Below are positions 6,791 through 55,539 of a DNA stretch of 64,000 nucleotides, piece by piece. Location: contig JBIKVS010000002.1 in assembly GCA_044356725.1 (NCBI GenBank), positions 1-64,000 of the forward strand. Reading direction: 5' to 3'. How positions within the stretch are numbered: the stretch's first letter is position 1; each line of letters begins with the position of its first letter. This DNA comes from Minisyncoccia bacterium (GTDB taxonomy: Bacteria > Patescibacteriota > Minisyncoccia > SW-4-49-11). The notes below the pieces were generated by a model. That model did not search any database. It was not told the DNA's origin and worked only from the letters and a program-made list of their open reading frames with translations. The position numbers were made by a program, and so were the translations under genes.

Positions 6791-6975
6791 CCCTTCCATC
6801 CCTACGGAGGCTATCTCCACAAGGGAGATAAAAATTTCAACTAAATTGTCCTCCTTTGGAGGAGGTGGCACGAAGTGCCGGTGGTGGACTTAAGGCTACT
6901 GAAAGGGCTACCTAATAAATGGAGGTATAAACCCTCAGCTACGAAATTCATAATCCATCATTCATAATTATAATA
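6791..6975. repeat. Intergenic REP-like hairpin mosaic A
   Basis: ttgtcctcctttggaggaggtggcacgaagtgccggtggtggact (6846-6890) matches 55397-55441 and the reverse complement of 22678-22720; cataatt-type heptamers at 6945-6975. Confidence 0.85.
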
Positions 6976-22582: not shown

Positions 22583-22772
22583 AATTATGAATTATGAGTT
22601 GTTAATGATACTTATACAGGCTCATTATATTTTAGTCCTCCCTCCAAAGGGAGACAATATTTCAAGTTGCAAAATAATCCACCACCGGCACTTCGTGCCA
22701 CCTCCTCCAAAGGAGGACAATATAATACAAAGTTCAGGCGACTAGTAGGTCGCCCCTCAACGAGGGGAATTT
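22583..22772. repeat. REP-like mosaic C
   Basis: aattatg heptamers, then ccctccaaagggagacaa, ccaccggcacttcgtgccacctcctccaaaggaggacaa and ggcgactagtaggtcgcc. Confidence 0.85.
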
Positions 22773-25906: not shown

Positions 25907-26356
25907 TTAAGAAAATGAATAGTGTTGTTTAATAATTTTTAATAAATCTTCTTCTTTAGAATGCATCTCCTCATAATCTTCATCTGTCTGATGGTCATAT
26001 CCTATCAAGTGACATAGCCCATGGACACATAAAGTGGCTATTTCATAGTCTATACGATGTCCTAATTCTTCAGACTGAGATAGAGCTTTATTATAACATA
26101 TTACAATTTCTCCTAAAGTCATATCTTCCATAGAATAGTCTGACATCAGATTAAAAGATAAGACATCGGTAACTTTGTCTTTATTTCTATATTGAGCATT
26201 CAAATTTTGAATAGTACTTTCTGATACAATTGCCACACTAACTGTTGTATCCTGAAATTTACGGTCAATATTTTTACTAAATATGTCTACACATAAAGCT
26301 ATCAGATTATTATAATCTGGTATATTAGGAACTTGTGATTCAAATTCCAATATCAT
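25907..26356 (-). CDS. ybeY: rRNA maturation endoribonuclease
   Basis: TDVLSF, HGLCHLIGYDH. Confidence 0.96.
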   Translation of the reverse strand: MILEFESQVPNIPDYNNLIALCVDIFSKNIDRKFQDTTVSVAIVSESTIQNLNAQYRNKDKVTDVLSFNLMSDYSMEDMTLGEIVICYNKALSQSEELGHRIDYEIATLCVHGLCHLIGYDHQTDEDYEEMHSKEEDLLKIIKQHYSFS

Positions 26357-26359
26357 AAT

Positions 26360-26800
26360 TTAGGCTAATTTAGTTTGAACTAAATCTTTAATTTGATTAC
26401 CGTCAGCTTTACCTTGAGCTTTACTTACTACTAGTTTCATCACTGAACCAAAGTTAGCAGAATCTCCAAGCTCAGAGATACTAGCTTCCACTAATTGCTC
26501 TAGTTCTACATCAGTCAATTTAGCTGGCAAATATCTCTGTATAATCTCTAATTCAGACATTTCAGAGGCTACCAAGTCCTCTCTTCCTCCCTCTTGATAG
26601 GCTTGAATAGAGTCTTTTCTTTGTTTCTCTAGCTTGGACAAAACTTTAATCACATCGCTGTCTTCTAATGGACTCCCTTTATCAATTTCTGCATTTTTAA
26701 ACTCTGAGCTTAGAGTTCTAAGTACAGTTTTGGCAAGGTCATCTCTATCTTTCATTGCCTGTACCATATCTTTTTTAATTGTAAGAGCAATATTAGACAT
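26360..26800 (-). CDS. yqeY: GatB/YqeY-domain protein
   Basis: AMK, KQRKDS...GREDL...E...YLP; follows rpsU. Confidence 0.92.
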   Translation of the reverse strand: MSNIALTIKKDMVQAMKDRDDLAKTVLRTLSSEFKNAEIDKGSPLEDSDVIKVLSKLEKQRKDSIQAYQEGGREDLVASEMSELEIIQRYLPAKLTDVELEQLVEASISELGDSANFGSVMKLVVSKAQGKADGNQIKDLVQTKLA

Positions 26801-26811
26801 AAATCAATATA

Positions 26812-27081
26812 TTATTTGATACTAGCTTTAATTTTGAGCTTATACTTATTGGGTAATTTTTCTGTAGATCGAACTTTTCCCATTTTGACAAGCTTATCTT
26901 TTTCAGTTAAGAATTGTACTTTTTTGATTGCAGCTTGTCTTTGCTTAGTTTTAGACTTACCTTTAGTCAAAAATCTAGAGGCTCTAGCTTGGCTTAAAAC
27001 TTCACTTTTTTGAATGCGTCGAGTAAATCGTCGAATCATAGATTCCACGTTTTCCTTTTCTCTCTTTATTACTTCTACCAT
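26812..27081 (-). CDS. rpsU: 30S ribosomal protein S21 with basic C-terminal extension
   Basis: VEVIKREKENVESMIRRFTRRIQKS; rpsU-yqeY gene order. Confidence 0.88.
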   Translation of the reverse strand: MVEVIKREKENVESMIRRFTRRIQKSEVLSQARASRFLTKGKSKTKQRQAAIKKVQFLTEKDKLVKMGKVRSTEKLPNKYKLKIKASIK

Positions 27082-27089
27082 ATATTACA

Positions 27090-27183
27090 ACCTCCTTTCA
27101 TTATTTTGACCAAATAAAGTTGGTCTTATAGCTTATATTAAGACTTTAAAATCAATTTTACCACAGAATAATATTTTTTGCAA
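27090..27183 (-). promoter_or_regulatory. Own promoter and strong SD for rpsU
   Basis: TTGCAA (27178-27183), 17 bp, TGgTAAAAT (-10 at 27155-27160); GAAAGGAGGT (27090-27099) ends 8 nt before the ATG. Confidence 0.85.
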
Positions 27184-27199
27184 TAGTATGTATTGACAT

Positions 27200-28480
27200 T
27201 TATTTAGTTACTTTTTTACTTAAAATAGATATCAACTTATCAATCGGGATAATTTCTTGATTTTCACTTTCTTTATCTCTTAGAATTACAGTTCCATCTA
27301 CTGCCTCTTTACGCCCTACAATCAAGGTGACTTCTGCATCTGACTGTTTAGCTTTTAATAGCTGTTGTCTAAGACTTTTAATTCCAAAGTTTTCTTTGAC
27401 ATCTAATCCGTGTTTTTGAATTAAAGATAATATTTTTAAGGCACTTTTCTGTCCCTCAAGCCCAATAGAAGCTACAAATATATCTGGCTTTTTACCTTTA
27501 TTTAATTTATTAGGGTTGATTTTTTGCACTAAATCTAATAATAAATCGACATAAATTTCTATTCCGACAGCACCTGAACGCTTATTACCACCTAATAGTT
27601 CAAATAATTCATTATGTCTACCTCCTCTGACCAAAATCATCTCTGGATAATCTTGACTCATAATTTCAAAATATACTCCTTCATTAAATCCAATGGAACC
27701 CGCCAAAGTAGATTCTAAATTATATTGTATATCAAGAGTATCCAAAAATTCTAATACCGCTTTGAAATACTGAGTCTCTTCTGTACTAAGATAATCTACT
27801 ATTTGAGGTATTCTAATATTAACATCTGTATCTAAACTCAAAAGCTCATTGTATAATTGAATGGGATTATATGATAAAGAACTTGATAGATCTTTAAATC
27901 TTTTTGGAGTCTTTGATATTAATTCTTTATAATACTGTTCTCTAGAATCTAAATTTCCAAGAACATTAATATTAACAACTAAATTTGTGATTCCTTGTGA
28001 TTCCAGCATACGATAAGCCGTCAAAATCAGTTCTGCATCCCGAATAGGATTAATATCTCCTATACATTCAGCTTTAAATACATGGAATTGTTTTGGAGTA
28101 GTAGCACTGTTATTATCATCATCTACCAAAGATATACCATAATCAAATAGCTTAAGTGACTCCTCTTGATATGGGATATTATTATCTATCACCGTTTTTA
28201 ATATTCCAATTGGACCAGGCGCTCCTAATACGATGGTATTTTTAGATTTATATTTTACAGTAAATAATGATTCTGTAGCTCCAATATTTAACTTATGTAA
28301 AATTTTATTATTAAACACTGATGCTTCTTGAGTAAAAGTAAAGCCACTATTTTGATATCCCACACTTTTTAGAGTATCTCTAATATCTGAGACCACACAG
28401 TCCCAAATATTTGAAAATTCAGGATTAATAATGGCTGTATCTAATGAGTGATTTTTTCTTACACCTCGTCGTCTTCTCAT
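27200..28480 (-). CDS. Degenerate histidyl-tRNA synthetase paralog with anticodon-binding domain
   Basis: HisRS layout (QF....ECIG...DAE.I, GGRHNEL, C-terminal KSLRQQL..A...IVG.KE) but catalytic motifs altered. Confidence 0.82.
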   Translation of the reverse strand: MRRRRGVRKNHSLDTAIINPEFSNIWDCVVSDIRDTLKSVGYQNSGFTFTQEASVFNNKILHKLNIGATESLFTVKYKSKNTIVLGAPGPIGILKTVIDNNIPYQEESLKLFDYGISLVDDDNNSATTPKQFHVFKAECIGDINPIRDAELILTAYRMLESQGITNLVVNINVLGNLDSREQYYKELISKTPKRFKDLSSSLSYNPIQLYNELLSLDTDVNIRIPQIVDYLSTEETQYFKAVLEFLDTLDIQYNLESTLAGSIGFNEGVYFEIMSQDYPEMILVRGGRHNELFELLGGNKRSGAVGIEIYVDLLLDLVQKINPNKLNKGKKPDIFVASIGLEGQKSALKILSLIQKHGLDVKENFGIKSLRQQLLKAKQSDAEVTLIVGRKEAVDGTVILRDKESENQEIIPIDKLISILSKKVTK

Positions 28481-55394: not shown

Positions 55395-55539
55395 AATTGT
55401 CCTCCTTTGGAGGAGGTGGCACGAAGTGCCGGAGGAGGACTAAGGCTGATGTTGTTGTTATAAAGTTTATTCTAATATTTTAGTATTTCAAGTATAGTCC
55501 TCCCTCCCCCTACGGGTACTCCCTCCAAAGGGAGACAAA
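55395..55539. repeat. REP-like pair G (two oppositely oriented units)
   Basis: 55397-55441 matches mosaic A; 55496-55539 is the reverse complement of 18648-18691. Confidence 0.88.

Follow-up and report, generated by a model that had tools for sequence, protein, structure and literature searches.

What does an extended Shine-Dalgarno (SD) sequence do in front of rpsU, the gene of ribosomal protein bS21, in a genome that largely avoids such sequences? The question is raised by positions 27,082 to 27,183 of a stretch of 64,000 nucleotides of contig JBIKVS010000002.1 (Minisyncoccia bacterium, assembly GCA_044356725.1); this whole stretch is called the window. An earlier note on this DNA had described the SD as reserved for rpsU and had proposed that bS21 controls its own translation by feedback, in the manner established for Flavobacterium. 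We compared the pairing between the rpsU leader and the 16S rRNA tail in this genome, in its relatives, and across the phylum. The comparison indicates that the element is a functional and unusually long SD, which pairs with the 16S 3′ tail to start rpsU translation and which may form part of a feedback on bS21 supply. The elements concerned are the following:

26812..27081, minus strand: rpsU, open reading frame (ORF) of ribosomal protein bS21, 89 aa, with a basic C-terminal extension (LPNKYKLKIKASIK)
27090..27099, minus strand: extended SD GAAAGGAGGT, 10-nt perfect complement of the 16S tail ACCUCCUUUC
27082..27089, minus strand: 8-nt A/U-rich spacer tgtaatat between the SD and the ATG, with U at -1
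27081-27079, minus strand: rpsU ATG, directly after the spacer

Pairing of the rpsU Leader with the 16S rRNA Tail

The genome comprises 897 kb in 20 contigs, with 33% G+C, the standard code, and one 16S gene (contig C6), and its assignment to the candidate phyla radiation (CPR) holds. The 3′ end of its 16S rRNA is ...GGAUCACCUCCUUUCUaagg, with CCUCC present, and therefore the rpsU 10-mer is the exact complement of ACCUCCUUUC. The perfect SD that had been reported 8 nt before the rpsU ATG was thus confirmed on the organism's own tail. It forms 10 consecutive Watson-Crick pairs with an energy of -16.8 kcal/mol (ViennaRNA duplexfold against GAUCACCUCCUUUCU). On both strands of the genome there are 4 occurrences of GAAAGGAGGT, 2 of which sit 8 nt before a first start codon.

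Mechanical calling gave 917 ORFs whose start could be evaluated, and for each of them positions -22 to -3 (20 nt) were scored against the 15-nt tail. According to an exponential fit of these energies, one gene would be expected by chance at -15.2 kcal/mol. Beyond this value we found rpsU, an ORF of contig C2 (-22.2), a type IV pilin (-19.3), and one spurious palindrome ORF; with the correct choice of ATG, the gene of HU (-19.4) also belongs to this group. In the ranking of all starts by pairing energy that the earlier note had suggested, rpsU is first among the ribosomal protein genes recognised and is not first genome-wide.

SD Avoidance in the Genome

The SD-window energies of the 917 ORFs had a median of -1.5 kcal/mol, with 14.0% reaching -4.4 and 7.0% reaching -6; among random genomic 20-mers, these fractions were 27.3% and 15.2%. 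Matches in the SD window were fewer than in a mock window (-52 to -33) from -2 to -8, for instance, 123 vs 216 at -4 and 53 vs 105 at -6, and G accounted for only 5-8% at positions -8 to -3 of the ORF starts. The description of the other starts as A/T-rich and without a comparable SD was therefore borne out. When 40 kb of E. coli were passed through the same naive pipeline, 49% of the starts were at or below -6 vs 7% here, and 76% (31/41) of the annotated E. coli starts reached -6 kcal/mol. In E. coli, rpsU (-8.5) takes a middle place among the ribosomal genes; a strong rpsU SD is therefore not universal.

The genes of EF-Tu, SecY, S6, SSB, S18, S20, and the 20 ribosomal proteins from S10 to L15 were all weaker than -5.7 kcal/mol, and the next best after rpsU among the 26 translation-related genes examined was -5.6. 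No other ribosomal protein was recognised among 57 candidate starts with a dG of -14 or below and an ORF of at least 25 aa, not all ribosomal protein genes being named. Among those recognised, rpsU is the only ribosomal protein gene with an SD in this genome.

The other genes start without an SD, via an A/U-rich leader with U at -1. The share of ORFs with this U before the ATG is 82% (n=714), and it is 84% in the loci of the genus and family; the corresponding values are 42-45% in the wider Patescibacteria samples described below and 15% in the 40 kb of E. coli. From EF-Tu to SecY (C2:38181-49627) it is found in 21/22 ORFs, the exception being L22, with a doubtful TTG start. In this same cluster, the uL30 gene is missing between S5 and L15 (C2:39510-40437), as reported for CPR genomes in the available text of PMC9297842. 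The rpsU gene has U at -1 (27082). The SD-led HU, pilin, and C2 ORF are without it, which suggests two distinct initiation modes in this genome.

We also considered prfB as a further client of the anti-SD. The RF2 gene (C14, L362:1408-2490 (-)) is an uninterrupted 360-aa ORF with an SPF motif; there is neither a programmed +1 frameshift nor an internal SD in it. The second release factor gene, on C2, encodes RF1.

Conservation of the rpsU SD in Relatives and across the Phylum

In the form GAAAGG(A/G)GGT, the rpsU SD is kept in 11/11 same-genus genomes and in 5/5 other genomes of the family, that is, 17/17 with the window genome. The sequence before rpsU in the family genomes is GAAAGGAGGT, and the one that has GAAAGGGGGT still pairs through G-U. 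The flanks of the leader drift in the family while the SD stays.

Two wider samples were analyzed. Sample 1 contained 80 loci of up to 20 kb each, collected via the bS21 peptide motif [LI]RRFTRR[VIL][QN][QKN], of which 79 were evaluable; the first 16 are genus or family kin. Close relatives in a named collection bore the labels Parcubacteria, Paceibacteria, Paceibacterota, or Minisyncoccia, with some Saccharibacteria or uncultured bacterium. The rpsU start was at or below -12.5 kcal/mol in 51/79 of these loci, intermediate in 2, and weak in 26, and in 50/51 strong loci no neighbouring ORF was as strong. Sample 2 was an even draw over the phylum of 151 genomes, 124 of them with an S21 match; the rpsU locus (~12 kb) and the 16S 3′ end were obtained for 72 genomes, with 71 evaluable. 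Here rpsU was strong (-12.5 or below) in 43/71, intermediate in 10, and weak (above -6) in 18, and it was the strongest start of its own locus of ~12 kb in 40/43 strong cases. Neighbouring ORFs of at least 100 aa reached -12.5 in 21/1059 cases in sample 1 and in 21/753 (2.8%) in sample 2. The extension to other Patescibacteria that had been proposed thus gave a strong rpsU SD in 51/79 and 43/71 loci against 2-3% of the neighbours.

Covariation and Joint Loss with the Anti-SD

Many genomes with the canonical tail (GGAUCACCUCC) have an rpsU SD that extends GGAGGUGA(U). In G042 and G167, which belong to different families and have the tails GGAAUACCUCC / AAUACCUCC, the rpsU SD extends GGAGGUAUU; in G143, with a tail ending CCUCCUUUUA, it has UAAAAGGAGGUG. 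This covariation, which comes from three variant-tail genomes only, and the joint loss described next indicate that pairing of the rpsU SD with the rRNA is under selection.

Within the class of the window genome, the rpsU SD was lost exactly where the core of the anti-SD was lost (10/10), although these losses may share ancestry. Wherever a strong rpsU SD came with a readable tail (G018, G023, G026, G029, the family member G012, and the window genome), this tail is the canonical one. The 5/5 without rpsU SD (G017, G019, G024, G028, and G168) lost the CCUCC core, and each has a different decayed 16S tail. Among genomes without an S21 match whose tails were readable (n=16), 5 had an altered or lost core, 3 of them of one family. 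A separate observation concerns 13/72 genomes of the phylum sample, in which the model-defined 16S 3′ end lies in unrelated sequence and the tail is unreadable (loci L178, L181, L201, L215, L216, L219-L221, L223, L236-L238, and L240); insertions or introns close to the 3′ end could account for this.

Other Genes with a Long SD

The genes that accompany rpsU at the top of the ranking are the following:

C2:8979-9530: acidic membrane ORF with GTG start, SD -22.2 kcal/mol
C15:2170-2445: HU, SD -19.4 kcal/mol
C8:19394-19837: type IV pilin (major pilin), SD -19.3 kcal/mol

These three genes have SDs of 12-13 nt that are conserved in the family. The HU SD, GAGAAAGG(A/G)GGTG, was present in 15/15 loci with a match among 17 family genomes searched; the major pilin SD, AGAAAGG(G/A)GGTG, in 11/16 family loci evaluated, G001 and G002 having given distant paralogues only; and the C2 ORF SD, AGAAAGGAGGTGA, in 15/17 family loci. 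The distance from the core (GGAGG or GGGGG) to the start is 9-10 nt in the four genes, and 9 nt in rpsU. Outside the family, a strong SD was seen on the pilin (G018, G026, and G027) and on HU (G018) only in genomes with the rpsU SD. The C2 ORF lies downstream of rpmE-prfA-prmC and has no Pfam family, with a weak sub-threshold match to archaeal flagellin only. In a scan down to 25-aa ORFs, a second pilin-like protein appeared at -15.9. The rpsU SD is thus exceptional and not unique, with about 4 credible genes of roughly 900 having SDs of 10-13 nt.

Other strong matches were discarded. C10:4684-5040 (-16.8) appears to be a false ORF lying on a palindromic hairpin of terminator type, the match at C13:21287 is internal to a 302-aa ORF, and many short GTG "ORFs" with strong pairing are part of a G-rich repeat. 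A G+C-rich repeat in this A+T-rich genome is an observation in its own right. It is located in the window at 6840-6890 (+), 22685-22705 (-), and 55412-55432 (+), with 3 exact copies vs 0 expected, and there are further copies on C4, C5, C10, C14, C16, and C18. It forms nested hairpins (GTCCTCC..GGAGGAGG, GGCAC-GAA-GTGCC) containing both CCTCC and GGAGG motifs, and the comparison with Rfam gave no family (best E-value 0.31).

Identity of bS21 and Organization of the Locus

The rpsU product matched Pfam Ribosomal_S21 (PF01165) with E=1.4e-5 and 25.2 bits, just under the 27-bit cut-off, and matched bS21 chains of solved ribosomes with E down to 0.0015. Its conserved N-terminal RRFTRR motif is common to named Patescibacteria loci, and the gene order rpsU-yqeY-ybeY is consistent with bS21. 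The C-terminal domain, after K42-S43, has a pI of 10.6, with 16 K+R vs 3 D+E. The bS21 chain of 7JIL matched at E=0.33 only, and the position of Tyr54 is not reliably alignable. The bS6 of this genome (143-aa ORF) has a long C-terminal extension. When bS21 length was compared by SD presence, the medians were 86 vs 77 aa in the motif-found loci and 70 vs 68 in the even phylum sample; a link between length and SD was dropped, since it was not robust across samples and was confounded by kinship.

The further features of the locus are the following:

27155..27183, minus strand: promoter-like site, -35 TTGCAA (27183-27178), 17-nt spacer, extended -10 TGgTAAAAT (27163-27155)
27123..27147, minus strand: conserved leader block AAAGUCUU, directly downstream of the -10
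27108..27125, minus strand: GACCAA/TTGGTC hairpin, present, not conserved in relatives
27200..28480, minus strand: hisS-like gene upstream of rpsU, Pfam tRNA-synt_His and HGTP_anticodon
26360-26800, minus strand: yqeY, downstream and co-oriented, Pfam YqeY E=1.5e-42
25907-26356, minus strand: ybeY, downstream and co-oriented, Pfam YbeY E=1.1e-36

The region upstream of rpsU reads ...aaaataatGAAAGGAGGTtgtaatatATG on the minus strand. The stop codon of the hisS-like gene is 118 nt upstream of the rpsU ATG, and in this interval a consensus scan predicted a sigma-70-like promoter with 9/12 consensus matches plus TG. Its columns TTGC and TG-n-TA..AT are conserved throughout the genus and in most family members, in agreement with the proposal that rpsU has its own promoter. 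Terminator-like sites were found neither in the rpsU leader nor after rpsU. The gap between rpsU and yqeY is 11 nt. YbeY is a nuclease that matures the 16S 3′ end, and the target of this neighbour in the rpsU row would be the segment that pairs with the rpsU SD.

The GACCAA/TTGGTC hairpin that had been noticed upstream of the SD is present at 27125-27108; it is not conserved and probably has no function, and the 91-nt leader as a whole folds no better than shuffled sequence (z = -0.01). In the AAAGUCUU block, which is invariant or near-invariant among 12 genus sequences, GUCUUA (27144-27139) can pair with UAAGAC (27128-27123), which includes the downstream AAGAC. This small hairpin is the minimum-energy leader fold in 9/12 genus sequences, and its 3′ arm has only G-U-compatible variation. 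RNAalifold on the 12 genus leaders returned neither a consensus structure nor consensus pairs, and for this reason we suggest only weakly that the block may be a 5′-terminal stem-loop of the rpsU mRNA. Considering that the GACCAA/TTGGTC hairpin is not conserved, together with the z value and the RNAalifold result, leader structure as a regulatory element was dropped.

In one RNA-library run (X20), a contig of 669 nt from a relative ~94-95% identical spans 26569-27245; as a contig it is uninformative on transcript start, strand, and level. Two other runs (X21 and X22) contained no part of the stretch, which carries no weight as evidence. It has no listed difference within the rpsU SD, DNA being possible in the library, and it has an 8-nt deletion at 27131, beside the GACCAA/TTGGTC hairpin. 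The Rfam scan of the window gave 4 tRNAs only.

Proposed Feedback and Alternative Explanations

We propose that bS21 would be located beside the anti-SD on the 30S platform. The 30S subunits still without bS21 would engage the anti-SD more easily and would thereby favour rpsU in translation, while bS21-replete ribosomes would translate it less; the outcome would be a negative feedback on bS21 supply, as in Flavobacterium johnsoniae. In the family, the same long-SD route also serves HU, the major pilin, and the acidic membrane protein. We assign a probability of about 0.5 to the operation of this feedback here. An anti-SD open to long SDs only is in line with the scarcity of moderate SDs and the presence of a few very long ones. 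Since four genes share the long SD, the circuit would be a small SD-dependent gene set with rpsU as its core, not a single-gene device. The findings that the earlier note had named as contrary to its proposal were for the most part not encountered: the 16S tail has CCUCC, the relatives keep the SD, and about 4 of ~900 genes are comparable.

Several points weigh against this feedback, with its proposed sequestration of the anti-SD and proposed control by bS21. Contrary to the earlier note, the SD is not reserved for rpsU: the SDs of HU, pilin, and the C2 ORF are equal or stronger and conserved in the family, so that the one-gene logic of Flavobacterium fails here, and abundant proteins are unlikely to be left to a minor fraction of incomplete ribosomes. 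A strongly basic C-terminal domain sets this bS21 apart from that of the Bacteroidia. The idea that the basic extension occludes the anti-SD found no support, as the Bacteroidia domain stands out as less basic and the one here has a pI of 10.6; nor is the extension coupled to the anti-SD, since G024 has a similar C-terminal tail although its anti-SD is gone. Among the 18 phylum genomes in which the rpsU start is weak, the tail is the canonical one of 16 nt in 11 and retains CCUCC in another 5, so the link between rpsU SD and anti-SD is not obligatory. No gene finder was used in the naive calling of starts, and in a few weak cases, such as G154, the start is misplaced.

The main rival explanation is a plain high-efficiency SD without feedback, where the anti-SD would be accessible in all ribosomes, most genes would do without an SD, and a few short genes with their own promoters would win scarce ribosomes by a very strong one. 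The long SD is common to four genes, which also agree in the distance of 9-10 nt from core to start; both HU and the pilin may well be very abundant, and the C-terminal domain of bS21 is without the Bacteroidia signature; we regard this explanation as quite possible. It meets the difficulty that bS21 is present in one copy per ribosome, like roughly 25 examined ribosomal proteins that have no SD, and that EF-Tu has none either. It also leaves unexplained why rpsU has a strong SD in 43/71 phylum loci vs 2.8% of neighbours and why the SDs of pilin and HU are nested within genomes with the rpsU SD. Moderate SDs, moreover, are under-represented and not graded, which fits an anti-SD engaged by long SDs only.

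Older work in E. coli reported that bS21 helps SD-anti-SD pairing, and from this a fail-safe can be derived, in which the extra-long SD would let bS21-poor subunits still initiate on rpsU and would guarantee re-supply. The same comparative signature would be expected (rpsU-specific, extended, and covarying with the tail), and the basic C-terminal domain is more like that of SD-using bacteria than that of the Bacteroidia. Replete ribosomes, however, would then translate rpsU better, a positive feedback with no homeostasis, and the genome-wide avoidance of moderate SDs would be unexplained, which makes this reading improbable. That the purine run is there by chance, or has a role other than ribosome binding, for instance as a protein operator or a transcription signal, is favoured by nothing more than the general A/G richness of the leaders and the lack of a significant leader fold. 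The exact match to the genome's own 16S tail at canonical spacing, the conservation of the SD while flanks drift, with A-to-G changes that keep G-U pairing, the covariation with tail variants, and the loss together with the anti-SD effectively refute it.

A wider version of the feedback can also be formulated. The bS21-replete ribosomes of Patescibacteria would be largely blind to ordinary SDs, like those of the Bacteroidia, through an arrangement that evolved independently, and the bS21-less 30S would be specialised ribosomes for a tiny regulon of genes with SDs of 10-13 nt, with rpsU as universal core and lineage-specific members added, here HU, the major pilin, and the acidic membrane protein. 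We consider this version tentative and on balance doubtful. If it were true, rpsU translation would be the main reason why the anti-SD survives in SD-poor CPR lineages, and the joint loss of anti-SD and rpsU SD would be explained.

Comparison with Known Systems

In Flavobacterium johnsoniae, bS21, bS18, and bS6 together sequester the 16S tail, and initiation on rpsU is faster with ribosomes that have no bS21, according to the available text of PMC7797042, PMC9976891, and PMC13000453; the background given in the earlier note agrees with these sources. Sequence features like those seen here had led to the proposal of bS21 autoregulation in F. johnsoniae before it was demonstrated there. As given in the text of PMC9976891, McNutt et al. 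(2023) predict bS21 autoregulation where rpsU is the clear winner among ribosomal protein genes and its pairing is below -13 kcal/mol. In our genome, rpsU is the winner among the ribosomal protein genes examined, with -16.8 kcal/mol, an energy obtained with ViennaRNA duplexfold, which differs from the free_scan of the papers. As in the Bacteroidia, the genome is SD-avoiding and the canonical anti-SD is kept, rpsU has an extended SD (9-13 bp and below -13 kcal/mol in the criterion) that is the strongest among ribosomal protein genes, SD-window matches are rarer than mock matches, and the rpsU SD covaries naturally with 16S-tail variants. The differences are equally clear: the phylum is Patescibacteria/CPR, the C-terminal domain of bS21 is strongly basic, there is no programmed prfB frameshift, and the circuit is predicted here from sequence. 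The same sources describe the Bacteroidia domain as less basic, with signature Tyr54, and the pocket as formed by Phe50, Asn56, and Lys37 of bS18 and by Trp100 and Arg103 of the bS6 C-terminal helix. F. johnsoniae has one SD gene (PMC9976891, in the text available), unlike the four or so conserved SD-led genes found here.

The Chlorobia, within the Bacteroidota, are the case most similar in the kind of evidence, given that bS21 autoregulation was predicted there from the same two sequence criteria only (PMC9976891, available text). Because their bS21 is without Tyr54, the authors call the mechanism "similar but not identical." Chlorobia conserve 11 other tail-contacting residues, and their likeness to Patescibacteria consists of the two criteria.

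As in canonical SD initiation in E. coli, a purine-rich stretch complementary to the 16S tail stands at the usual distance from the AUG of rpsU; unlike in E. coli, 7% of the starts reach -6 kcal/mol, and the SDs are few and 10-13 nt long. In classical autoregulation of ribosomal proteins, the protein binds a structured operator in its own mRNA that mimics its rRNA site. The proposed circuit would likewise be a feedback that matches ribosomal protein supply to ribosome assembly; it differs in that there is no conserved significant leader structure and the sensor would be the ribosome itself.

For CPR, the available text of the ribosome survey (PMC9297842) reports an anti-SD motif detected in only 48% of Parcubacteria, a bS21 that is frequently absent, and enlarged bS6 and bS21, which are not connected there to rpsU. 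No description in CPR, of which the earlier note knew none, was found: the accessible text of the literature on bS21 autoregulation and CPR ribosomes, including PMC7797042, PMC13000453, PMC9976891, and PMC10783764, gave no link between an SD of rpsU or bS21 and CPR, and supplementary tables might list non-Bacteroidota. The present results bear on the loss of the anti-SD in some Parcubacteria and of bS21 in others, noted without explanation in the text of PMC9297842 at hand, and they offer a testable reason for anti-SD retention in SD-poor lineages. In practice, when genes are predicted or expression constructs designed for CPR organisms, SD-less starts (here with U at -1) and a small number of very long SDs should be allowed for. 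Specialised ribosomes lacking bS21 have so far been documented for one phylum, and the same sequence signature is widespread in CPR; this suggests that the coupling of bS21 supply to SD-anti-SD pairing is ancient, or that it evolved repeatedly in SD-poor bacteria.

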